Of a DNA stretch of 64,000 bases, positions 16,552 through 64,000 are shown piece after piece. Within the stretch, counting starts at the first letter, position 1; every line of letters starts with the position of its first letter. The notes below the pieces were generated by a model. That model ran no database searches. It worked only from the letters and a program-made list of their open reading frames with translations, and was not told the DNA's origin. Source of the stretch: Escherichia coli (GTDB lineage Bacteria > Pseudomonadota > Gammaproteobacteria > Enterobacterales > Enterobacteriaceae); assembly GCF_030013205.1 (NCBI RefSeq), contig NZ_CP122648.1; one strand, given 5' to 3'. The position numbers and the translations under genes are program-made.

Positions 16552-17937
16552 TTATACATCCGCCGGATCGATACCGTATTCCTGGAGTTTATACATCAAT
16601 GCACGGCGACTGATGCCCAGCATTAAAGCAGTGCGGGTTCGGTTTCCTTCTTGTTGTTCCAGCACTTCCATAATGATGCGTTTTTCGACGCGTTTAATTT
16701 CCTCTTTTAAATTACGCTCTCCGACAGGGGATGTTTTTACCTCGCCAGCATTACAGACTGGCTGACGAATCTGCGGCGGAAGATCCTCAGAAAAAATGAT
16801 CGGGCCTGAGTTCATCACGACGGCGCGTTCAATAACGTTGGAAAGCTCTCGAATATTTCCCGGCCATGACCAGGCGGTAAGCAGTGACATTGCCATCGGA
16901 TCGATGTCGATAATATCGCGCTGATTCTCACTACTGAATTTTTGCAAAAAGTGATTAGCTAACAGGGAAATATCTTCCCGGCGATCGCGCAGAGGCGGCA
17001 GTATTAAATGAATAACGTTAAGGCGATAAAAGAGATCTTCACGGAAGGTGCCTTCTTTTACCATTGCCTGCAAGTCACGGTTGGTGGCAGCAATGATGCG
17101 GATATCAACTTTTATGGTCTGATGGCCGCCAATCCGTTCAAATTCCCGTTCCTGCAGAATGCGTAGTAATTTGGCTTGCAGTACGAGCGGCATTTCGCCA
17201 ATTTCGTCGAGGAGCAGAGTACCTTCGTTGGCACGTTCAAATAATCCCTGACGCAAGGTTTGTGCACCAGTAAATGCACCTTTTTCATGACCAAACAGTT
17301 CACTTTCGAGCAACGATTCCGGCAGCGCCGCGCAGTTGACTTTAATGAACGGCCCCTTTGCCCGCCGCGAATTGTAGTGAATCGCTCTGGCAATCAACTC
17401 TTTCCCGGTGCCGCTTTCACCGCTAATCAAGACGCTGGCCTGAGAAAGGGCAATTTTGGCGGTGTCTTTGCAGATGTCCATCATCGCCGGGCTGTTGGTG
17501 AGAATGTGCCCCCATTGCCAGCTAGTGCTCAGTGCCTGGTGCAGATGGCGGATCTCTTTTTTCATTGACTGGAGTTGTAAAGCGCGCTGAACGATTAAAT
17601 TCAACTCATCGAGATCAAACGGTTTGATAACATAGTCGAAGGCCCCGCAGCGTAGCGCTTCGACGGCGGTTTCCACTTCAGCATAGGCCGTCATCAGAAT
17701 AACGGGGGTCCGTGTCTCATGGCTGCGCATCTCCTTGAGTGCCTTGATGCCGTCCATCTCTGGCATGCGGATATCCATCAACACCACGTCAGGGTGAATA
17801 TCAGCAAACAGGTGTAATGCTGTGCGTCCGTTGTTCGCACAATGTGTTTCGAAACCTTGTAGTGCAAAAGCGGTGCTCAGCATACGGCGAACATTATCTT
17901 CATCATCCACAATAAGGATGCGATTAATAGCAGTCAT
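16552..17937 (-). CDS. atoC: sigma-54-dependent response regulator AtoC
   Basis: 461-aa ORF: receiver domain (ILIVDDEDNVRRML), AAA+ sigma-54 activator core (GESGTGKE, GAFTGA), C-terminal HTH. Confidence 0.95.
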   Translation of the reverse strand: MTAINRILIVDDEDNVRRMLSTAFALQGFETHCANNGRTALHLFADIHPDVVLMDIRMPEMDGIKALKEMRSHETRTPVILMTAYAEVETAVEALRCGAFDYVIKPFDLDELNLIVQRALQLQSMKKEIRHLHQALSTSWQWGHILTNSPAMMDICKDTAKIALSQASVLISGESGTGKELIARAIHYNSRRAKGPFIKVNCAALPESLLESELFGHEKGAFTGAQTLRQGLFERANEGTLLLDEIGEMPLVLQAKLLRILQEREFERIGGHQTIKVDIRIIAATNRDLQAMVKEGTFREDLFYRLNVIHLILPPLRDRREDISLLANHFLQKFSSENQRDIIDIDPMAMSLLTAWSWPGNIRELSNVIERAVVMNSGPIIFSEDLPPQIRQPVCNAGEVKTSPVGERNLKEEIKRVEKRIIMEVLEQQEGNRTRTALMLGISRRALMYKLQEYGIDPADV

Positions 17938-43763: not shown

Positions 43764-44239
43764 ATATTCGCCGTAAAAACCGCTTGTGGATTGCCTGTGC
43801 CGTGTTGGCGGGGCTGGCGCTGACTATCGGTCTGGTGCTGTATGCGCTGCGCTCGAATATCGATCTCTTTTATACGCCGGGGGAAATTCTCTACGGCAAG
43901 CGTGAAACTCAGCAAATGCCGGAAGTCGGTCAGCGTCTGCGCGTTGGCGGGATGGTGATGCCGGGGAGTGTGCAGCGCGATCCCAATTCGCTAAAAGTAA
44001 CTTTCACCATTTACGACGCTGAAGGTTCAGTAGATGTCTCTTACGAAGGCATTTTGCCGGATCTGTTCCGTGAAGGGCAGGGCGTTGTAGTGCAGGGCGA
44101 GCTGGAAAAAGGCAATCATATCCTCGCGAAAGAAGTGCTGGCGAAACATGATGAAAACTATACGCCGCCAGAAGTTGAGAAAGCGATGGAAGCTAACCAC
44201 CGTCGCCCGGCGAGTGTTTATAAGGACCCAGCATCATGA
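43760..44239 (+). CDS. ccmE: cytochrome c-type biogenesis heme chaperone CcmE
   Basis: 159-aa ORF with N-terminal membrane anchor and heme-binding region [12 protein letters not shown]. Confidence 0.93.
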
Positions 44240-53361: not shown

Positions 53362-55401
53362 TCATCCCAGGAACCGTTGAGCACCAATTAGTTGCGCGAA
53401 GTAATCGGCACCAGCGTTCCGAACAATTTCCAACTTAACGTTCTGATCATTGTTTCCTGCTGCAGGGACAATCCCACGATTCATAGCCAGCGCCCGGATC
53501 ACATCTTCAACACTTACAGCTTTAGCGGCAGCACCATTTTCATGGTTAATAATGCCCTGAATTAGCTTTTTCATGACCTCAAAATTAGAACCATCGATTT
53601 TCTCCTTAACACCTAATCCGGTGTACTGAGAGAGATAGCTTTTATAGGACGATGTGTTATTTCCATCAGATGAAGGGGCATAAATATCAATAATCTGATC
53701 AATCGTATTTTTGCCGCGTTTCAGGTATAGCATTACCTGCCGATCTAAGGCGGCAATGCCTTCCAGCATCGTCGGGAAGCTGGCAAAACGGGCATTTGGC
53801 CCCGATTCCAGGGTAGCCCCTTTTTGTCCTGCGAAATTAAGATTTCCGGGATTGTTATTCCTGATCCCTCTGGATAAATATGCAGATCTGTTTACTTGAT
53901 TTGAAAATCCCTGCAATCCTCCAGGCCAGACCTTACCCGGATTGTTTTTTTGCCACTCCTGCACTTCGTTAAAATAATCAAAGTTGAAACGCCCCTCCAG
54001 CCCTTTCATTTCCTCACTGGTGGTAGGTGTGTCATTTGTAGGAATAGCCAATCCAGCTACTGTTCCGGCTGTAGCCCCAAGAAGACTTCCACCAACAACA
54101 CGGGCGGCAACTCCGGTCGTTGTGGCTGCCACAGCACCAACTCTCGATGGTCCAGCAAGTACTGCGGCCCCAAAAAGCCAGGGATGTTCAACCGCAAAAC
54201 CAACAAACCCGCTAAGTGCCTTAACAACCTTTGCAACGTTTTCGGCAAAATTGTTCAGGTCGTTATTAAAATCCGGGCCATTTACGTACTTACCAAGTTT
54301 ATCCAGCCCCGTTTCTACATCCGTCAGAATCCTTTTAAAGTTCTCACCATTCATGAAATTCAGGGCAGCATTCGTGGCACCATCAGACATTCTGATTAAA
54401 GCGTCTTCATTCCCCGCCATTGCTCCCTGAAATCCGCTGGTAAGCCGATCCCAGTTTTTTTCCAGGTTACTGGTAATATTCTGATATTTACTTGTATGTG
54501 CAGAGGTCAGTAACGAATCATTCTGCGCTGCACGTAACGAAAACTCTTTGTTGAGTTCAGGTATTTTGTCCTGATATTTGACTAACTGGTTAGTAAGACC
54601 AAAATTTACCCATCCAAGCCCCATTCCTCTGAAATTGCTCTGGGTAAGACCAGTTCCCTGATATTCCTTTGCCAGCGCTGCAACCTTTTTCAGGAATACA
54701 GGCAGGTTTTCAGTCGCGTTTTTATCAGGATTTAGCCCCAGATTAAGCAGGCCGACGCGGGCAGGATGCGATATATCATTTTGTGCTGCTGCCAGTGTAT
54801 TGAGCACATTGCCAACACCGGAAAAATAAGGCGAATAAGTGCTTTCTGCCGCCTTTAACTCTCCTGGCGTTGCCACCAGCTCATCTGCATTTTTCTGTTT
54901 CTCTACAACACTACGGGACATCATGCCAAAGCCAAACGGTCCGGCAACGCCCATAACCGAGAGTTTTGTTCCCCACGATACGGTTGTTTTAAACAGGTTG
55001 TTTAATCTTGAAGTGGTCGTCTGTAGTGTAGAATTGATCTGCTTGTAAGTTTTCAGCGTCTGTTGGGCATTTTTCCCCAGCCCGCTGAGATACTTATCAA
55101 ACATCGTTTCGCCGCGACCTTTATAGTTGCTTACGAACGAATCTGCTGTTTTTCCGCTGCCGACAAAGCGCCCTTTTTCGTCCCTCACTCTCCCGGATAC
55201 ATCCGGTCCTGTCCGACCAGATTTTGCCGCCACGGGTAAGCCTGCCCCCACGCTGCGCCCACTTTGCCCCGGTATTTTCATCGGCGTTCCGGCAGGGCCG
55301 ATCATCAGCCCGTTGCGATACTTTTCAAAAATTGCCTCAAGCCGTTTGAGGTGTTCTTCATTAACGTCCAGCGTCAGAACTGGCATCTGATTACCTGACA
55401 T
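53362..55401 (-). CDS. large Gly/Ala-rich protein, tape-measure-like (function uncertain)
   Basis: 679-aa ORF; hydrophobic Gly/Ala-rich segment (GFVGFAVEHPWLFGAAVLAGPSRVGAVAATTTGVAARVVGGSLLGATAGTVAGLAIP), helical N-terminal half, C-terminal NNNPGNLNF region; start codon overlaps the stop of the upstream frameshifted pair (TAATG). No NTPase motif found. Confidence 0.45.
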   Translation of the reverse strand: MSGNQMPVLTLDVNEEHLKRLEAIFEKYRNGLMIGPAGTPMKIPGQSGRSVGAGLPVAAKSGRTGPDVSGRVRDEKGRFVGSGKTADSFVSNYKGRGETMFDKYLSGLGKNAQQTLKTYKQINSTLQTTTSRLNNLFKTTVSWGTKLSVMGVAGPFGFGMMSRSVVEKQKNADELVATPGELKAAESTYSPYFSGVGNVLNTLAAAQNDISHPARVGLLNLGLNPDKNATENLPVFLKKVAALAKEYQGTGLTQSNFRGMGLGWVNFGLTNQLVKYQDKIPELNKEFSLRAAQNDSLLTSAHTSKYQNITSNLEKNWDRLTSGFQGAMAGNEDALIRMSDGATNAALNFMNGENFKRILTDVETGLDKLGKYVNGPDFNNDLNNFAENVAKVVKALSGFVGFAVEHPWLFGAAVLAGPSRVGAVAATTTGVAARVVGGSLLGATAGTVAGLAIPTNDTPTTSEEMKGLEGRFNFDYFNEVQEWQKNNPGKVWPGGLQGFSNQVNRSAYLSRGIRNNNPGNLNFAGQKGATLESGPNARFASFPTMLEGIAALDRQVMLYLKRGKNTIDQIIDIYAPSSDGNNTSSYKSYLSQYTGLGVKEKIDGSNFEVMKKLIQGIINHENGAAAKAVSVEDVIRALAMNRGIVPAAGNNDQNVKLEIVRNAGADYFAQLIGAQRFLG

Positions 55402-56083
55402 TACAATACTCCTGCGGGATTTTTGAATTTGAGCAGCTCACGAAACTGAGCTGCTGTTTTTACATTCAGACCGGAATCTGCACAGATGTCTCTGAATCCG
55501 GCTCCGGCTGAGTAGTCGAGGATGTCGCTGATGACGTGTTCGCCGTCGCGCCAGAACTGACGGCAGGCTTCAATGTCGGCAATGAATCGATCCATTCCGT
55601 AAGACTCAAGGACGAGCATTGAGTGCTCCATATTCCATTCACCGCATCCATAGTCCCCTTCGTCTGCTCCGGGGAATTTATCGACGAGACGCATGTAAAA
55701 AAAACAAGTTCACCCGCCACTTCGTCCAAATCAACGATTTCACGCTCCAGCGCCATATCGAGAGGGATTGTGTCGTAGCCTTTGCCCTCCACTGGATAAA
55801 CAAGGTTTGCCAGGCGAATAATTTCGTTTATGAGCGTATTACGTATGCCTTTCTCCCCATCCCATAAACCGGAGTCACGGGAGATTTTCTCCAGCATAAG
55901 GCAGGCAACGCGCGGACCCGCAACAACACCAAGACCTTCAGAAAAAATGGCAGAAAAGGTTTTACTCAGGATGAAGAAATGCTCTTTAAACACCTCTTTG
56001 CTGATCGGCGTGGCATGGAGCCAGCCATTACCCTTTTCAGTGCGCACAGGGATAATCAGATTTAAGTTTTTAGCAATTTTCAT
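55401..56083 (-). CDS. two overlapping same-strand ORFs joined by a probable programmed -1 frameshift (tail assembly chaperone G/GT-like)
   Basis: ORF A (56083 down to about 55466) reads ...DLDEVAGELVFF through a run of 8 T on the minus strand (8 A on plus at about 55696-55703); ORF B (about 55694..55401) is in the -1 frame and continues ...YMRLVDKFPGADEG. Upstream segment about 129 aa, downstream about 98 aa, directly 5' of the 679-aa gene. Confidence 0.4.
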
Positions 56084-56763
56084 GATTCACTCACTCTGTT
56101 TTTTTCCAGTTGATCCAGCCGCCCGGATATTTCTTCCAGTTTTTCCAGAGCTGGCTTGCAGGCCGCATCAATAACTTCACGGACCATTCCGGCGAGCTGT
56201 TCTTCTTCTGTCGGCGTTGTTACTTCCACACCTGATGGTTTCCCGCCCTTATCCCATACGCCCAACGGTACGAGCGCAACGTGATCGATAAGAAATGGCG
56301 TACCCTCAATGAAAAAATTGTCCTCGCCCATTACATCAGGAACTTCTGCCCCACCGGACGCACCACAAAACACAACCGACGGGCTGGTGGATACCTCCCC
56401 CCGTGCTTTCTGGATGTAATCGATGATTTCCTGCCCGTAAATCCGGCATACACCCCACACCTCGTCACCGCGAATATACGGCAACATGACGGTGCCAATA
56501 ATGCGCGACCGTTCGCCAACGTCTTCAATGGTTTTGCCTTCGGGATGGTCGATAATGACGGGTACTCCGGCGCAACGTTCCAGGAACTGCGGATTGAGAT
56601 AAGTTTGCGGTGAACGCCAGACAAATTCTTTTTCTTCGGCGCGGTAGGCCATGCCAGTCCCTGTAATACGCAGGTTAACCAGCCACATGTTGGAGAACTG
56701 ATAAGGCGACGGTAGCTGACCGTCCCGAATCTGCTTTGCCGCCTCAATTTCTGTTAAAAGCAT
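56080..56763 (-). CDS. phage-like hypothetical protein (227 aa)
   Basis: ORF MLLTEIEAAKQIRDGQLPSPYQFSNMWLVNLRITGTGMAYRAEEKEF; overlaps the start of the downstream gene by 4 nt (coupled operon). No family recognised with confidence; could be a tail-tube-type or protease-type protein. Confidence 0.5.
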   Translation of the reverse strand: MLLTEIEAAKQIRDGQLPSPYQFSNMWLVNLRITGTGMAYRAEEKEFVWRSPQTYLNPQFLERCAGVPVIIDHPEGKTIEDVGERSRIIGTVMLPYIRGDEVWGVCRIYGQEIIDYIQKARGEVSTSPSVVFCGASGGAEVPDVMGEDNFFIEGTPFLIDHVALVPLGVWDKGGKPSGVEVTTPTEEEQLAGMVREVIDAACKPALEKLEEISGRLDQLEKNRVSES

Positions 56764-56827
56764 AATGTCACCCGGTTATAATCAATAAGCCCCGCCAAAT
56801 CCGGCAGGGCTGAAATCAGCACGTTTT

Positions 56828-57415
56828 TCATGCCCCCGCGAGGCTTGCAACGTTAATTTTGACCAGGCGACGGGGAGGGATTTTGAAAGCACTAAGCCAG
56901 TTATTCGGATCCCCCTGATATTCAGTAATCCGGCGCCCGGCTTCATCCATCCTGACTTTTTTAGTCAAATAACCCGGCGTGTTTTCCACGGCCCACTGAG
57001 CACTTTCCTGAGCAGCCTTGTAAATCTGATCTTCCAGCACCGCCAGCGTTGCAGAATCTGAAACGGAACGAATATCCACATCACTGAATTTTTTAGCCAG
57101 CTTCTGTGCGCCAATTAATGCACGCTTGCGGTAATCCATCGACTTTTCACCAGCAAACGGGGCCGGAGCTCGACGGCCCATATTGCTGTATGCGGAATCC
57201 GCTTTGGCCTGGGCTTCTGCCAGTGAGGATTCATCTTCGACTGACGCGACGATGTTTTGATTAGCGTTATCCTCTTTTATGAAATCCTGTGCGGGGATCG
57301 CATTCAGAATTTCGATAATCTCCTGCGGAGTGCTGCCCTGCGACTCTGACAGAGCGTTAACCACCTCCATCAGTTTTAATCGCAAATCTTCTTTGCTTGC
57401 TGGCATTTTTACCAC
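56828..57415 (-). CDS. phage-like hypothetical protein (195 aa)
   Basis: ORF MVKMPASKEDLRLKLMEVVNALSESQGSTPQEIIEILNAIPAQDF; acidic/helical; first gene of the leftward operon after a promoter-like gap. Confidence 0.5.
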   Translation of the reverse strand: MVKMPASKEDLRLKLMEVVNALSESQGSTPQEIIEILNAIPAQDFIKEDNANQNIVASVEDESSLAEAQAKADSAYSNMGRRAPAPFAGEKSMDYRKRALIGAQKLAKKFSDVDIRSVSDSATLAVLEDQIYKAAQESAQWAVENTPGYLTKKVRMDEAGRRITEYQGDPNNWLSAFKIPPRRLVKINVASLAGA

Positions 57416-57445
57416 CTCTCTTTTTTCACCAAAAAATCACGACCA

Positions 57446-57643
57446 TCAGGCCGGACGTTCTACGGGATAAAGCGCCCGCTGCATTAAACGCCGGGCGACC
57501 TCATGAATGCTCGGAGCAATCCCCAGCGGAGAATTGCGGCGTTCCTCGTCCTGGATGCGCTGTAATGCTTCAATCTGATCACGAGCGAGTAAAACAGGTT
57601 TCACGCTGGCTTTTCTCATAGTCATATCTCCTGAACAAAACAA
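57446..57643 (-). CDS. small hypothetical protein (65 aa or shorter from an internal Met)
   Basis: ORF MFCSGDMTMRKASVKPVLLARDQIEALQRIQDEERRNSPLGIAPSIHEVARRLMQRALYPVERPA; possibly a small DNA-binding/antitoxin-like protein; no family recognised. Confidence 0.35.
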   Translation of the reverse strand: MFCSGDMTMRKASVKPVLLARDQIEALQRIQDEERRNSPLGIAPSIHEVARRLMQRALYPVERPA

Positions 57644-57749
57644 CGATTATGATTGCACAAACTGAAATGACGATCTACATCATTGCAATTTATGAAACAA
57701 TAACGCATGATGATCGCGTTCTTCCCATTGACTTCAATCACCTGAAAAA

Positions 57750-57785
57750 CAAAGCCCGCAACACTTCTGGCTGCGGGCTTTTTAC
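57750..57785 (-). terminator. intrinsic terminator downstream of the PerC-like gene
   Basis: Minus strand GCCCGCAGCCAGAAGTGTTGCGGGC hairpin followed by TTTGTTTTT. Confidence 0.5.
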
Positions 57786-57820
57786 TGGCACAAAAAAGCC
57801 GGGAAAAATCCCGGCCTCCG

Positions 57821-58108
57821 TCACTGACTGCAATTTTTCGATCCAGGGTATTTCCTGAATGCCTTACCATTGGGCTGATGTAATCCCATCCCGGCATGTG
57901 CCCGGCTGATGGTTTCGCGCATCTCCCCGAAATTATCCTGCCGTGCTGGTGGGCGTGCTGCCTTGCGGATACATTCCGCGCGACGTTTTGCCGCCTGTTC
58001 CCGTGCCTTGTCATCATTCGCCAGCATGATGACCTCAGCCCACCGCGCCGCCGCTCTCCGGTACAGACCACGCGCTTCCAGTGCTTCCGCTTTGCTGTCG
58101 TGAATCAT
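57821..58108 (-). CDS. PerC-family transcriptional activator-like protein
   Basis: 95-aa ORF MIHDSKAEALEARGLYRRAAARWAEVIMLANDDKAREQAAKRRAECIRKA; the KAExLExRGxYRRAAxRW pattern matches recalled PerC/Pch-type activators. Confidence 0.55.
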   Translation of the reverse strand: MIHDSKAEALEARGLYRRAAARWAEVIMLANDDKAREQAAKRRAECIRKAARPPARQDNFGEMRETISRAHAGMGLHQPNGKAFRKYPGSKNCSQ

Positions 58109-58647
58109 GCGCCTGTTTTCTCCTTTGCTACCCGGCGCTGACGTTTGCGCTTCTCATTCAGCGCCACCAGCCGCGTTTCTGCGTCCTGTTGTTCCTGTGG
58201 TGTCACCTCGCCGCACGGCTGGCCTTTCAGGTCGTAGCGTACCCCACCAGCCATTAAGGCGCGGTAATAGCGCGGACACTGTGCATAAGATGCCAGCGTC
58301 GCACGCAATGCCCCTGGACCGAATGCCAGCCCCCTGACGGCGAGATCCTGCATCAGGTCGTCGAATATCCCCACCTTAAGCGGCTTCGGTGCTTCCCGGC
58401 TGAATAATTCAGGCCACAACTCAGTGAGGCGGTTAATGCGCCTGCGGTTTTTGCGCTGGCGCTTGGTCATATGCCGCCACAGTGTCGCCCCTGTGGGCTT
58501 CTGCTGCGCTTTCTGGTTACCGGGCATCACTTTATGCGCCGATGTGGTTTTATCCTGCTCCTGCGCCGCCTGCGTCGTTTTCTGCGGCGTGCCGTAAATG
58601 CCTTTAGGTTTTCTGTTAATGGTCAGCTTAGTCATGCTTTGCCCCAT
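58105..58647 (-). CDS. ProQ/FinO-domain RNA-binding protein
   Basis: 180-aa ORF; basic N-terminus then LTELWPELFSREAPKPLKVGIFDDLMQDLA...GALRATLASYAQCPRYYRALMAGGVRYDLKGQPCGEVTPQEQQDAETRL, closely resembling the recalled ProQ N-terminal FinO domain. Confidence 0.7.
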   Translation of the reverse strand: MGQSMTKLTINRKPKGIYGTPQKTTQAAQEQDKTTSAHKVMPGNQKAQQKPTGATLWRHMTKRQRKNRRRINRLTELWPELFSREAPKPLKVGIFDDLMQDLAVRGLAFGPGALRATLASYAQCPRYYRALMAGGVRYDLKGQPCGEVTPQEQQDAETRLVALNEKRKRQRRVAKEKTGA

Positions 58648-58719
58648 CGTTTTTACTGATTGCTACGTTGCCCAACGGCACTGACACAACATTCTGTTTT
58701 CATTTTTAACATTCCTAAT

Positions 58720-59115
58720 TTTTTAATTCCTCACCTGCTGCACAGTGAAAATTTATGAAGTTAATAACAATATGATTTTAAATGTATTTTTAAGTACTCA
58801 CTTTTTAATCCTTATATATACGCAAAAGTGAGGTAAATAGTTAAGTTTTAGTTAATATCTTGCATGGTGTGTTTTTTAACCTACCTGTTATTTTTATTAC
58901 CTCATTTCTATTAACTCACCATTCCTCACTTTTGTTCCTCACTTTTTGTTATTCCCGTCCTGCTCCTCACCTGTTTTTCTTGTTGTTGTAATGTCTTGTT
59001 TTACAATATGTTTTTCATTCCTCACTTTTTGACCTATATACAGGTGAGAAAGTGAGGAGTGGCGTTGATTTTTTGTTAAATTACCCGCCATCCTCACTTT
59101 TGCTCCTCACTTTTT
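58720..59115. repeat. iteron array (TCCTCACTTTT and variants, direct and inverted), candidate replication origin
   Basis: At least 10 copies of CCTCAC(T/C)TTT: e.g. 58728, 58924, 58937, 58964, 59020, 59091, 59105 direct and 58826, 59044 inverted, within AT-rich DNA directly 3' of the helicase gene; the last copies overlap the helicase stop codon. Confidence 0.6.
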
Positions 59116-60529
59116 ACAGTGGGCGCACATAATCACCGTCAATAGCGATTACGCCGTCGCTTTCCAGCTTGTACAGCCAGCGCCGGAAGTTTTTCATTTC
59201 ATACCCCAGCTTTTTCATATCATCGCGGAGAAGGGCGATAGTGCACGCCTCCCCGTGTGCTGTTCGCGTTCTGATGCACTGCCATAGCGCAGCGTGATTT
59301 TCCGTCTTGTTCCCGGCCTCCTCGATGCGTTCCAGTTCAACAGGTGGGCGCGGCTTATCCACAACCACCAGCGACGTGATTAACTCCCCGTCAGTGTCGG
59401 TAAAAAGCTCCACCACGCGTAAATCATATGCAGCCTCTTTCAGTTCCTCCGCGTCCTTCATTTTGGTGCAGGAGATAACCAGGGCTTCACTGTCCGCACC
59501 TTCACGGCGAATACGGTATTCAGCGTCCAGAGATGCACGAAATGCACTGGAACCACGCGCCCCTTTTGTTTCATCCTTGCCGGAATGGTGAACCACCAGT
59601 ACCGTGGCCCCCGTGCGTCGTTTCAGTTCGTCACATCCACGGATAAACGCCCCCATATCCCGCGCGTCATTTTCATCATTACCGCCAAAGCAACGCGCCA
59701 GCGTATCCAGAATAATCATGCGTACCGGTTTACCCGTTTCCCGTTCAACCTGACGGGAAGCGATGACCATTTCATCAACATCAAGCGGGACCGCCGGAAA
59801 AATCGGGCGGTTTACCAGGTACAGATTTTTCACCCGTTCATCATTAACGATTTCCCATGCTTTGATACGACGAGGGACACCAATGCCACCTTCACCGACG
59901 ACATACATCACCGAACCATGCGCCACCCTGCGGCCTCCCCAGTGGCGACCCGTGGCAACATGACACGCCCAGGAACACGCGAGGAACGATTTATAGGAAC
60001 CGCTCGCGCCGTATGTGCTGCACAATGAATTAGCCGGAATCACGCCCTTAACGACATAATCAAGCTGTGTGTCGTACCCTGCAGATCCAATACTCATTGG
60101 TAGTGTGGTTTTTCGCTGGTCGTTTTTTTCTTCCTCTGGTATCTCTCCGGACAGTCTTTTCTGGCGCTCTCGTTCCAGATATTCGCGCCACTCCTCGCGT
60201 TTCTGGCTGTGCATTCCCTCGGGGTAATAATTCGCATCCCGTACACCTGCCGCCGCCAGCTTTTGCCCGATGGCGTTAATATTTGACGGCTTGATGTGGC
60301 CTGCCTTGTACAGCCGGACACAATAGCGACCATCGTCGATAATTTTCAGGTCTGCCAGTTCGTCAAGCTGGCTGTCTCCCAGCCATACAGGCGGCACGTT
60401 GTCGCCAGCAAGTCGCCCGTCCTGCTCCTGCCACTGTTTCGCGTGCGCCCAGGCATCACTACCCGCAAAAATAATGACTTCGGTCATTTTGTCGTGTGGC
60501 TGTTTTTTTAAGTTCGGTGCCAGTTTCAT
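59114..60529 (-). CDS. RepA/DnaB-like replicative helicase (RecA-fold ATPase)
   Basis: 471-aa ORF with P-loop GASGSYKS, Walker-B-like ILDTLARCFGG and LVVHHSGKDETKGARGSSAF, typical of phage/satellite helicase-type initiators; start overlaps the upstream gene stop. Confidence 0.75.
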   Translation of the reverse strand: MKLAPNLKKQPHDKMTEVIIFAGSDAWAHAKQWQEQDGRLAGDNVPPVWLGDSQLDELADLKIIDDGRYCVRLYKAGHIKPSNINAIGQKLAAAGVRDANYYPEGMHSQKREEWREYLERERQKRLSGEIPEEEKNDQRKTTLPMSIGSAGYDTQLDYVVKGVIPANSLCSTYGASGSYKSFLACSWACHVATGRHWGGRRVAHGSVMYVVGEGGIGVPRRIKAWEIVNDERVKNLYLVNRPIFPAVPLDVDEMVIASRQVERETGKPVRMIILDTLARCFGGNDENDARDMGAFIRGCDELKRRTGATVLVVHHSGKDETKGARGSSAFRASLDAEYRIRREGADSEALVISCTKMKDAEELKEAAYDLRVVELFTDTDGELITSLVVVDKPRPPVELERIEEAGNKTENHAALWQCIRTRTAHGEACTIALLRDDMKKLGYEMKNFRRWLYKLESDGVIAIDGDYVRPL

Positions 60530-60825
60530 TTTGTGCCCCTGAATGCGTTAATCATGTTTTTCATTTTCTGAATATTTGCCCGTGCCTTTGCGTTGCTGGT
60601 GGGCTGTTTGCATGGCGTGGCCTGTATCAGTGAAAAATCACGCCGGAACTGATAAACAGGCATCACGCAGTCATATTCGTACCCATCACGGCGGTAAGTA
60701 ACGCACCGTCCCGCCACGCTTTTAATCGTTACAGTGCCGCCGTATTTATCTTTGAAAATATCGCCGGGGCGGATTTCAGGCCGAGAGAGACCGCTGGCAG
60801 TAAAGCCAGAATTTTTCTTTTTCAT
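60526..60825 (-). CDS. hypothetical protein (99 aa)
   Basis: ORF MKKKNSGFTASGLSRPEIRPGDIFKDKYGGTVTIKSVAGRCVTYRRDGYEYDC; coupled (ATGA overlap) to the helicase gene. Confidence 0.5.
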   Translation of the reverse strand: MKKKNSGFTASGLSRPEIRPGDIFKDKYGGTVTIKSVAGRCVTYRRDGYEYDCVMPVYQFRRDFSLIQATPCKQPTSNAKARANIQKMKNMINAFRGTK

Positions 60826-60831
60826 GGTTTT

Positions 60832-61197
60832 TTACTCCTGCGTCTTGCTCTGAATTACCTGATAACCGCAATCGGTCAGCAATTCGATAAATTCCGGCAA
60901 TGTGCCGAAACAGCAATTATCACGCATACGTTCGCGGGATACCTCAACGCCGTTTTCGTAGTGACTCACCATGCGTCCGGTAAAATGCAGATCATCATCG
61001 TGATGGCACGTTGACGGCTTAATCAGTCGCGCACGTTCTGCCAGCTCCAGCAATGCTTCAACACTTCCGGCAATTGCACCATCCGGCAGGCGATAATTAC
61101 TTACCACGCGTCCATTCTCCACATTGACCAGTAGCTGCCCGGTAAATTTCTCATCAAACTGAATGCTGTTAAGGTCAGAAATTGACAGGTTATGCAT
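60832..61197 (-). CDS. hypothetical protein (121 aa)
   Basis: ORF MHNLSISDLNSIQFDEKFTGQLLVNVENGRVVSNYRLPDGAIAGSVEALLELAERA; same operon, overlaps the upstream gene by 8 nt. Confidence 0.5.
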   Translation of the reverse strand: MHNLSISDLNSIQFDEKFTGQLLVNVENGRVVSNYRLPDGAIAGSVEALLELAERARLIKPSTCHHDDDLHFTGRMVSHYENGVEVSRERMRDNCCFGTLPEFIELLTDCGYQVIQSKTQE

Positions 61198-61552
61198 GGT
61201 GCACCTCCTGGCGAATACGGGCGGCGAATACCATCACGCAGCCATCAGGAGATTGCTGGCGTGCTTCCTGTTCGCTGGTGGCCTCGATGTGAATCACGCG
61301 CGGTTGTGCCGTACTCAGGGCGATAAAACGCCAGATAAAATTGTTTTCGCATTTCTGAATAAACAGCGTGTTTTCTTCGCGCCCTTTCCATGTTGCCGAG
61401 ATATAGCCCATGCCATTGAGCATCTCGCAGGCATCAACCAGCGTATCAGCGGCTACGTGTACAGTGTTTTTACCGTCAGCTATGCAATCACGGTGCACCG
61501 CCAGGAAGGTGTATATAAATTTAGGGTGAGTTTGGGTATGCTGTGTTCCAGC
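61190..61552 (-). CDS. hypothetical protein (about 120 aa)
   Basis: Internal start of the long minus ORF: MAGTQHTQTHPKFIYTFLAVHRDCIADGKNTVHVAADTLVDACEMLNGMGY, preceded by GAGGT RBS; everything upstream in that frame looks like antisense junk. Confidence 0.45.
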   Translation of the reverse strand, partial: AGTQHTQTHPKFIYTFLAVHRDCIADGKNTVHVAADTLVDACEMLNGMGYISATWKGREENTLFIQKCENNFIWRFIALSTAQPRVIHIEATSEQEARQQSPDGCVMVFAARIRQEVHHA

Positions 61553-61754
61553 CATAATCGTTACCTCATTTAACGGTTTGGTTAGAAGCCCCGTTACTGC
61601 TCCAACAGTGCGGGGCTTCGTCGTTTCAATTGCTGAATTGCATGTATCAGCCCTTGTGGTATTCAGATTACATTTTGGTGAATACCATTTCAAGTCTTTT
61701 TTGGTATTCACTTTTGTATTACACTGCATCCCGTTATTAATCGGAGGTGCAAAC

Positions 61755-62060
61755 ATGTCCACGAGTTCTGTTAACAATAAGTCACAGCAACTGAATGCCA
61801 GATTTCCACATGAAGTAGTGAGTGGCATTGAGGCATCCCTACAGCCAGGGGAAACTAAAGCGAATTTTATAGTTACGGCTGTACGCGGTGAGATCGCCCG
61901 CCGCCAGGCAGAAGGAAGCGGAGAAAACCCCCTGGTTTCTTCGCTCGATGCGCTGGCGCAGGTGGAAAAAATCGGAGTCAAAGCTGCCGAGGAGATCGGG
62001 CAGCTCGTCACCGTCGCACGTGAAGAACTCCAGCGCCGCAAGGCCAAAGAATCAGAATAA
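61755..62060 (+). CDS. small DNA-binding-like protein (possible ribbon-helix-helix / YlcI-YnfO-like), the only convincing plus-strand gene in the element
   Basis: ATG 61755 preceded by GGAGG RBS; MSTSSVNNKSQQLNARFPHEVVSGIEASLQPGETKANFIVTAVRGEIARRQAEGSGENPL (101 aa); divergent from the flanking minus-strand genes. Confidence 0.5.
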   Translation: MSTSSVNNKSQQLNARFPHEVVSGIEASLQPGETKANFIVTAVRGEIARRQAEGSGENPLVSSLDALAQVEKIGVKAAEEIGQLVTVAREELQRRKAKESE

Positions 62061-62283
62061 TAACTATCATCGCCGTGGTGTGAGGAACTCCGGCGCATTG
62101 CTTTACAGGTACACAGAATGACCAACAAAGAATCAACCAAAACACCATCACCAACTCGTAAGAGACGACGCAAAAATATAGCGCATGAACATGAATCAGA
62201 AAGATTCGCACCTTGTTCGTTTGCTCTTGAGAAATTCCTTAAAGAGCACAGGAAAAAGCTCTCGTTGCAAACCTTGGAACGAA

Positions 62284-62692
62284 CCAAATCTGACTGATCA
62301 CATTGCCCACCAGCCGCAAATGTGGCATTGTTGGTGATGCGTTCAAGTATGTAGCTTTTCCACTGGCGGCTCTCTACGGTCGCCTTTGTTTTATCCAGAA
62401 CGAAATCAGACATCAGATTGATCAGCACCTGGCGACCTGACAAAATCGCATCAGTCGCGCCACCAGCAAAATTTTTTGCTTTCCGGACGGCGTGACCAAC
62501 GGCATTTTGCAGCAAAATATTCTGCATTTCTGGCGTGCTGTAGTAACGGTGATCAGCGCCTTCACTCTGTGCGACCACAACGCTATAATCTGCCTCGTAG
62601 ACAGTAAGCAATATGGCGCAGTAGGCTATTCGTTCACAAAGGCGCTCCGGCAACGGGGCGCTTTTTGTTATGTTCATCGCGTTACGCCTCAC
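62284..62692 (-). CDS. hypothetical protein; protein-like N-terminal about 135 codons of a 500-codon open frame (true 3' end unclear)
   Basis: MRRNAMNITKSAPLPERLCERIAYCAILLTVYEADYSVVVAQSEGADHRYYSTPEMQNILLQNAVGHAVRK is protein-like, but the frame has no stop until 61190 and runs antisense through the plus-strand gene with Ser/Cys-rich junk; possible lost stop, frameshift or sequencing error. Confidence 0.35.
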
Positions 62693-62696
62693 ACCA

Positions 62697-62903
62697 TTAC
62701 GCAGCCGTTCCGCGCGCTTCTTCCTCGCGTTCTTTCAGCCAGGCCAGCACCTCATCTTCATACCAGCCAACACGACGCAGACCGATTTTGAAGCCTTTCG
62801 GGAATTTTCCGGCGTTGATCATGTCCTGTAGCGAACTGTCTGCCTTGATGCGCAGAATATTTTTTACTTCCTGACGGGTAAGGATTTTTCTGATTGTTTC
62901 CAC
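62697..62903 (-). CDS. alpA: AlpA-family phage regulatory protein (excisionase-like HTH)
   Basis: 68-aa ORF METIRKILTRQEVKNILRIKADSSLQDMINAGKFPKGFKIGLRRVGWYEDEVLAWLKERE, the AlpA/Vis pattern. Confidence 0.8.
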   Translation of the reverse strand: METIRKILTRQEVKNILRIKADSSLQDMINAGKFPKGFKIGLRRVGWYEDEVLAWLKEREEEARGTAA

Positions 62904-62971
62904 TATGTTTTACCTCGTTAATCCGGCGTATTCCGGTGATAAATACGGTAAAACAGGGCAGGGCGGGAAAA

Positions 62972-63008
62972 ACAGTACCCACCGTTTTAAAACGGTACCC
63001 ACTGTTTT
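62972..63008. promoter_or_regulatory. candidate operator in the alpA upstream region
   Basis: ACAGTACCCACCGTTTTAAAACGGTACCCACTGTTTTTT: two direct GTACCCAC copies flanking the perfect palindrome CCGTTTTAAAACGG, about 70-100 bp upstream of the alpA start. Confidence 0.4.
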
Positions 63009-63039
63009 TTATCTCATTGATTACGCTTTTCTTTTTGCA

Positions 63040-63066
63040 AAAAAATAGCGACCGCAAAGGGCCGCT
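63040..63066 (-). terminator. intrinsic terminator after the 76-aa ORF
   Basis: Minus strand ATAGCGGCCCTTTGCGGTCGCTAT hairpin followed by TTTTTTT. Confidence 0.45.
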
Positions 63067-63073
63067 ATTGTGA

Positions 63074-63304
63074 TTACCGCTTCCACTTCTTAGGTCGTCC
63101 ACCGCATTTAAGGCTGGTGGGTCTCAGCACCTTGTCGATGCTTTCAGCCAGATTTTTCGATGCGCCACGCGAGCGCAAAAAACTGACTACCTCGTGTTTT
63201 GTGGGGGCTGTTGATTTGTCTTCCGGATCGTACGTTGACCAGAATTCACGATTTGCCATTAAGGCCAGTTGCAGGCCTTCGCCGTAGGCGGTGGTATTTT
63301 GCAT
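63074..63304 (-). CDS. hypothetical small protein (76 aa)
   Basis: ORF MQNTTAYGEGLQLALMANREFWSTYDPEDKSTAPTKHEVVSFLRSRGASKNL between int and alpA; no family recognised. Confidence 0.45.
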   Translation of the reverse strand: MQNTTAYGEGLQLALMANREFWSTYDPEDKSTAPTKHEVVSFLRSRGASKNLAESIDKVLRPTSLKCGGRPKKWKR

Positions 63305-63402
63305 AATAGAATTTTCATATACTCCGGCCTTGTCGTTAAATTTGTGGCAATTATACGATGGTTTGGCATGGTTTTCACTGGTTGCACTGGCTTTTTGTAC
63401 AG

Positions 63403-64000
63403 TTACACGGCACGGATACCCCTTTTACCACTGGCTATGGTCACTCCGGTAGCTGCGGCCTCTACAAATTCCCCCCACCAGCGCATAAGCACCACGCGCT
63501 TTTCCAGGTAGTTACTTCGGTTATATGCTCGCCTTACCTCGTTCGTGTCCACGTGTGCGAGTGCGGCCTCGATTACGTCCGGCTCGAATCCTTCCTCGTT
63601 CGCTGCTGTACTGAATATGGCGCGTAATCCGTGAGACACCAGCACACCAGCGTATCCCATCCGGCGCAATGCAGCGTTAGCGGTCTGGCTGCTCATTGGC
63701 AGCATTGGATTTTTAAGGCTGGGAAAAACATGTTCCCTGTGTGCGCTGATTGGCTTCATTGTTTCCAGTACAGCCATCGCCTGACCGCAAAGAGGGATCA
63801 CATGGTCACGGCGCATCTTCATGCGTCCGGCTGGAATCGTCCAGGTTTCGGCATCGAGATCTATTTCTTCCCAGCGTGCGGCGGCTGCTTCGGCTGGGCG
63901 TGCTACGGTCAGCAGTTGCCACTCAATCAGCAATCTGGTTTGCCGTTCTATGCTGGCGACCGATAAATCGTGCATTAGCTGCGGTAGCTGTTCCGGTCGG
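63403..64000 (-). CDS. int: tyrosine recombinase / P4-type integrase, C-terminal catalytic part (gene starts beyond right edge)
   Basis: Frame is open to the window edge; C-terminal sequence ...HDLSVASIERQTRLLIEWQLLTVARPAEAAAARWEEIDL...HVIPL...LVSHGLRAIFSTAANEEGF...RRAYNRSNYLEKR shows the R...HxxR...Y catalytic residues of tyrosine integrases. Confidence 0.85.
   Translation of the reverse strand, partial: RPEQLPQLMHDLSVASIERQTRLLIEWQLLTVARPAEAAAARWEEIDLDAETWTIPAGRMKMRRDHVIPLCGQAMAVLETMKPISAHREHVFPSLKNPMLPMSSQTANAALRRMGYAGVLVSHGLRAIFSTAANEEGFEPDVIEAALAHVDTNEVRRAYNRSNYLEKRVVLMRWWGEFVEAAATGVTIASGKRGIRAV

Follow-up and report, generated by a model that had tools for sequence, protein, structure and literature searches.

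The open frame that runs off the right-hand edge of the window, by which we mean the whole 64,000-base stretch of Escherichia coli DNA analysed here, is in our reading the catalytic half of an intact 413-residue integrase of the P4/CP4-57 IntA type, carried by a PICI-like element of about 13.4 kb inserted in the 3' end of the tRNA gene proL. We hold this reading with a probability of roughly 90%. The integrase gene is intact, and it looks cut only since the window ends inside it. The protein is an ordinary member of a well-known family and is annotated in public genomes; its apparent truncation is an artefact of where the window happens to end in a gene of known kind, and in itself matters little. 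With the gene whole, and with proL and both ends placed, further analysis of the window can take the element as one complete unit of 13.4 kb.

The part of the integrase that is visible in the window is the following.

63403..64000, minus strand: 3' part of the integrase gene (residues 216-413 and the stop codon), identified by PF00589, by the full coding sequence in strain ETEC4079 and by the catalytic residues

Translation of the minus strand from 63403 to 63999 yields 198 residues and a stop codon at 63403-63405, without an internal stop, and the frame stays open up to the last base of the window, in agreement with the first-pass annotation, which had described about 200 visible C-terminal residues. 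The fragment alone matches the Pfam family Phage_integrase (PF00589) with an E-value of 8.5e-27 and 94.5 bits (cutoff 27.1) over profile positions 5-170 of 172, and therefore stands far above a chance open reading frame. This catalytic-domain match above the curated threshold makes the fragment a tyrosine recombinase. Residues 216-413 of 413 amount to essentially the whole catalytic domain, and the gene points away from the window edge, as alpA does (62697-62903, minus). Comparison of the fragment with lambda Int by BLASTP was uninformative, and a phmmer comparison with PDB sequences gave no match.

To extend the sequence past position 64,000 we relied on a public genome identical to the window, E. 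coli ETEC4079 (NZ_CP122643.1), rather than on the window's own record. This genome was picked out by a 14 kb query, and its locus, named L002, is numbered such that the window position equals the L002 position plus 44000. Local BLAST demonstrates that window positions 1-44075 and 44000-64000 are identical to ETEC4079 save for one T. Since the two sequences agree over 64 kb bar this one base, ETEC4079 is a reliable extension. The sole difference is an extra T at window position 51461, within the homopolymer T-run of the yejO/proL terminator hairpin. Elsewhere in the window, atoS (about 17934-19756) is annotated in the ETEC4079 record as a frameshifted pseudogene. Six porcine ETEC genomes match the final 1.4 kb of the window with 100% identity. 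One of these, ETEC1747, was rejected as an extension, being identical over that segment only and carrying a mosaic island of about 97% identity with indels.

In ETEC4079 the integrase frame continues past the edge for another 644 bases, or 215 more codons, up to an ATG, with neither a stop nor a frameshift. The full coding sequence spans L002 19403-20644, equivalent to window 63403-64644 on the minus strand, and its product is a protein of 413 residues (WP_000101918.1) that starts with MARKTTPLTITEIK. The disruption just beyond the edge that the first-pass annotation had named as counting against its reading is thus absent, and the N-terminal part whose inspection it had proposed consists of complete arm-binding and central domains behind the ATG start.

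The arm-binding domain Arm-DNA-bind_3 (PF13356) covers residues 8-94 with an E-value of 6.7e-24, in the part of the protein outside the window, and the central domain Phage_int_M (PF22022), also outside the window, covers residues 107-203 with an E-value of 1.9e-24; the Phage_integrase domain takes up residues 215-379 of the full-length protein. Over its entire length, residues 1-413 on profile positions 1-412 of 413, the protein scores 559.8 bits against the NCBIfam model NF007246 (cutoff 434), a score that takes in the 215 residues from ETEC4079 beyond the window. The match above the NF007246 cutoff, the PF13356 and PF22022 domains and the insertion into a tRNA 3' end with a direct repeat (see below) all place the integrase in the P4/CP4-57 IntA type. 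Solved homologous structures cover the N-terminal and central domains only, those of the N-terminal domain being 3ju0 and 3jtz.

Six residues of the catalytic domain, R249, K276, H338, R341, H364 and Y374, are invariant across 10 relatives of the integrase down to 34% identity, and the codons of all six lie within the window. When a profile of these 10 relatives was aligned with lambda Int by hhalign (94.8% probability), the first five corresponded to lambda R212, K235, H308, R311 and H333, and Y374 fell past the end of the alignment. Because Y374 follows H364 by 10 residues, against a spacing of 9 in lambda, it is the probable tyrosine nucleophile. One alignment was built after leaving out a locus with an in-frame stop.

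ARAGORN detects no tRNA gene within the 64-kb window. As the first-pass annotation had anticipated, the partner tRNA gene lies beyond position 64,000 on the minus strand: in ETEC4079, proL, encoding tRNA-Pro(GGG), occupies L002 20854-20930, equivalent to window 64854-64930, minus. The gap of 209 bases between proL and the start codon of int, which lies downstream of it, also disposes of the objection that a tRNA might not be found nearby. The next gene after proL is yejM, and a tRNA is the only Rfam family matched over the island. Island insertion at this tRNA site is on record for Salmonella (PMC7143636).

Alignment of empty and occupied sites defines an att core of 17 bases, TTTGGTCGGCACGAGAG, made up of the 15 bases that end the tRNA and two further bases. 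Its int-proximal copy is located at window-equivalent 64852-64868, so the attachment site on this side (attL) does lie outside the window, as had been claimed. The distal copy and the body of the element within the window are as follows.

51475..51490, unstranded: distal copy of the att core (attR in the lambda convention), TTTGGTC-GCACGAGAG, the 17-base core minus one G, from the empty/occupied alignment

51491..64000, minus strand: body of the integrated element within the window, delimited by the empty site of K-12; about 13.4 kb in total, reaching to window-equivalent 64851

The two cores are 13,377 bases apart from start to start, and the element including both of them extends from window 51475 to window-equivalent 64868. 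The first-pass annotation had held that neither the boundary nor the integrity of the element could be judged from the window. This view fails for the far boundary, which the window contains at 51475-51490; the extent and integrity of the whole can be judged once the tRNA sequence is supplied. The distal core adjoins the yejO terminator, just past it. The site is empty in K-12, where only 102 bases separate proL from the yejO stop codon. A contiguous int-proL junction is present in 438 of the 5426 complete E. coli genomes, and in island-free E. coli genomes the homology to the int-proL query starts exactly at the att core. The base composition of the island, 47-52% GC, could not be told apart from that of its flanks.

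Among ten genomes, the distal core was perfect in three, lacked one base in four (the window included) and lacked four bases in two. Every deletion is at the same GGTCGG spot, which could be the strand-exchange (crossover) region or a slippage hot spot. Excision is predicted to yield the attP junction …CCGATATTCGA-TTTGGTCGGCACGAGAG-TATTCAAAAC…, a pattern that had 0 matches in IMG/VR. In that collection this integrase family is represented by predicted proviruses whose sequence is cut where int starts, so that attP could not appear and its absence says little.

Several repeats and signals are recognizable near int and at the far end of the island.

51552..51577, plus strand: 26-base repeat CGTATAGCTTAACGTGTAGCTAAAAA, a candidate arm-type integrase binding site, with a second copy (25 of 26 bases identical) between the int start and proL

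63044..63069, minus strand: terminator-like hairpin of 10 pairs with a T run, after the 76-residue reading frame (L002 19069-19044)

63350..63378, minus strand: match to a sigma-70-like promoter, GTGAAA-17-TATAAT, in the interval from the int stop to the 76-residue reading frame, a consensus match only (L002 19378-19350)

L002 has seven GTAGCTA matches, of which four fall in the interval from the int start to proL and one in the distal 26-base repeat. In the related element of an O111 strain the motif is altered to TAACTA or TAGTTA at both ends, alongside a diverged arm-binding domain, which is the most diverged part between the window and O111 integrase alleles. This joint change is consistent with the TAGCTA-type repeats being arm-type binding sites. 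The promoter match should be read together with the scan that produced it, in which 1 site was found against 2.4 expected in shuffled sequences, a non-significant result. A further terminator-like hairpin is carried by the element directly 3' of proL.

Two other repeat groups occur within the island. A cluster of TTGACAC(T)TTTT direct repeats (D1-D3, in units of 39-40 bases) spans 52521-52782 at the far end, between reading frames of 59 and 175 residues, and could consist of regulator or packaging-site repeats. Just downstream of the helicase gene, at 58923-59116, three to four copies of TCCTCACTTTT(T/G) recur about 84 bases apart (D4, D11) and may be iteron-like origin repeats.

These features suggest a route of integration. 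The N-terminal arm-binding domain would bind the TAGCTA-type repeats near both element ends, while the central and catalytic domains would hold the core overlapping the last 15 tRNA bases, where Y374, assisted by R249, K276, H338, R341 and H364, would cut and rejoin the DNA. Because the element would bring along a copy of the end of the tRNA gene, proL would stay intact after insertion; the element also supplies the terminator-like hairpin just downstream of proL. AlpA, encoded two genes on from int, is the likely activator or excision partner.

The genes that separate int from the remainder of the island are these.

62697..62903, minus strand: alpA-family helix-turn-helix gene of 68 residues (PF05930, E-value 4.5e-8; phrog_66, excisionase and transcriptional regulator)

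63074..63304, minus strand: reading frame of 76 residues with a basic C-terminus, GGRPKKWKR, between int and alpA

On the minus strand the gene order is int, the 76-residue frame, alpA, an Icd-like pseudogene, a DUF4222 gene, a RepA-type helicase gene, ProQ/FinO, PerC and a late block; a YlcI/YnfO gene is on the strand opposite to the rest of the island. The helicase, also on the minus strand, matches PF13481 (E-value 3e-44) and primase/helicase families of PHROGs. The 76-residue protein has no match in Pfam, PHROG or NCBIfam. IMG/VR contains 59 loci with an integrase at least 74% identical, and among them an alpA homologue is present in all 59 and the 76-residue frame in 53, with the window's late block in only one. 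Thus int, the 76-residue frame and alpA form a cassette joined to varied cargo, and the 76-residue protein may belong to the module for integration and excision. An O111 strain carries, likewise at proL, an island with an 83%-identical integrase and with the canonical PICI markers terS and a capsid-like gene. Conversely, the cargo of the window is located between dinD and yicC in ETEC1716, where it is accompanied by an unrelated integrase of 422 residues (26% identical).

A separate observation concerns the region behind alpA. An open frame of 500 codons (61190-62692, minus) starts 5 bases past the alpA stop, crosses the YlcI/YnfO gene in antisense and terminates within the Icd-like pseudogene. 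Its first half is without an annotated gene in RefSeq, and two sub-fragments of the 500-residue translation had no Pfam match. It is probably a fused or read-through frame arising from insertion into the Icd-like gene.

The late block (52310-57406, minus) contains copies of myovirus morphogenesis genes. Residues 1-501 of a protein of 679 residues labelled lytic transglycosylase are 88.6% identical to the protein in the tape-measure position of the myovirus record PP818812, and a reading frame of 205 residues is 85% identical to the gene upstream of the tape-measure-position gene in the same record. [quoted passage not shown] A reading frame of 175 residues resembles terS (phrog_57) weakly, with an E-value of 5e-7 over its first 42 residues only. 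Pfam and PHROG scans found no capsid-like gene in the window's island.

The front half of the island matches the published layout of Gram-negative PICIs (PMC6092414, PMC11773190): int, alpA and a gene of the primase/replicase type lie on the minus strand and are read in one direction from the int end. The SatelliteFinder PICI model defines a marker set and forbids tail genes (PMC10085698), and the tail-gene homologues of 679 and 205 residues are at odds with it. Because the late block breaks this rule, we term the island PICI-like rather than a PICI. It is conceivable, if doubtful, that the island represents an undescribed subtype of phage satellite that combines a PICI front with myovirus head protease/scaffold, tail chaperone-like and tape-measure-position genes. 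If so, the gene mix would suggest interference with, or reuse of, the tail assembly of a helper besides its head assembly, and such elements would escape tools that allow no tail genes in a PICI. A literature search on satellites with tape-measure genes returned nothing relevant, the paper on Tai (PMC11364771) dealing with a different mechanism.

Whether the intact integrase still serves a mobile element deserves consideration. The integrase could be the relic of a fixed remnant that is no longer excisable because its distal att site has decayed, an account that we regard as less probable but worth keeping in mind. The one-base deletion in the distal core is what such decay would leave, and the gap could hinder excision if it is inside the crossover region; perfect 17-base copies are nevertheless retained at the distal end in other genomes. 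The Icd-like pseudogene likewise fits a remnant, as does the missing attP junction, although the latter loses its force with proviruses that are cut at the int start. These same observations, including the loss of four bases at the same spot in related islands, are the evidence that our preferred reading has to accommodate. A decayed element is difficult to reconcile with the integrase itself: relative to the 83%-identical allele at the same proL site in the O111:H8 strain, dN/dS is 0.09, implying that purifying selection on int is continuing. In addition, the combination of one int cassette with many cargo sets, and of the same cargo with another integrase elsewhere, indicates recent mobility and module exchange. 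The element may be mobile at present.

A different proposal, that the integrase belongs to a defective prophage or a P4-type satellite and not to a PICI-like island, seems quite unlikely to us. It would account for the P4/CP4-57 type of the integrase and for the myovirus homologues of the island, which correspond to a head protease/scaffold, to a tail chaperone-like protein and to a protein in the tape-measure position that has a lytic transglycosylase domain. Yet the 13.4 kb element has no capsid, portal, large terminase, tail tube or sheath, baseplate or lysis genes, no deposited phage carries an integrase more than 60% identical, and the same late module is found as a unit at another site. 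As for P4, the psu-delta-sid, epsilon and alpha primase set of P4-like satellites was not recovered: Psu, Sid, Delta, epsilon and alpha primase had no match among 17 proteins and the two sub-fragments of the 500-residue frame (Pfam) or among 10 proteins (PHROGs), and the one-direction front half described above is that of Gram-negative PICIs. Least probable by far is an integrase pseudogene disrupted just past the window edge, given that the frame is uninterrupted to the ATG 644 bases further on, that the product aligns end to end with IntA, and that the same accession, WP_000101918.1, is annotated in ETEC1747 too. An intact integrase in a PICI-like element at proL accordingly remains our preferred reading.

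The closest known counterpart of the integrase is IntA (SlpA) of the cryptic prophage CP4-57 in K-12 (b2622). Both proteins have 413 residues and are 56% identical end to end with one gap, and they have the three-domain layout and the NF007246 model in common. The setting is also alike: int follows immediately after a small RNA gene, in the same orientation, the 3' end of that RNA gene is the att core, and alpA is nearby. The target differs, being the proL tRNA-Pro(GGG) for the island and ssrA (tmRNA) for CP4-57. The two AlpA proteins are 33% identical over 45 residues only, the gene between int and alpA is the 76-residue frame in the island and yfjH in CP4-57, and the cargo is satellite-like in an element of 13.4 kb as compared with the 22 kb of CP4-57.

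The integrase of satellite phage P4 targets the tRNA-Leu gene leuX. By description, P4 Int and the island integrase share the broad tyrosine recombinase subfamily, the PF13356 arm domain, a tRNA 3'-end target and a partner of the AlpA/Vis type (PMC6092414). Unlike in P4, psu, delta, sid and alpha primase were not detected in the island by Pfam and PHROG scans. SPI-12 of Salmonella enterica is also among the closest known systems; by description, it belongs to another species and carries other cargo.

In contrast to PICIs, the island has a terS-like N-terminus that is weak, lacks a capsid-like gene and contains a tape-measure-position homologue (PMC10085698). In other respects it resembles Gram-negative PICIs such as EcCICFT073 and EcCIMP1, with int at one end, alpA adjoining and transcription running one way from int. 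A primase/helicase-type replication gene, a PerC-family regulator, a size of about 10-20 kb and an int allele absent from deposited phages are likewise shared between PICIs and the island (PMC6092414, PMC11773190).
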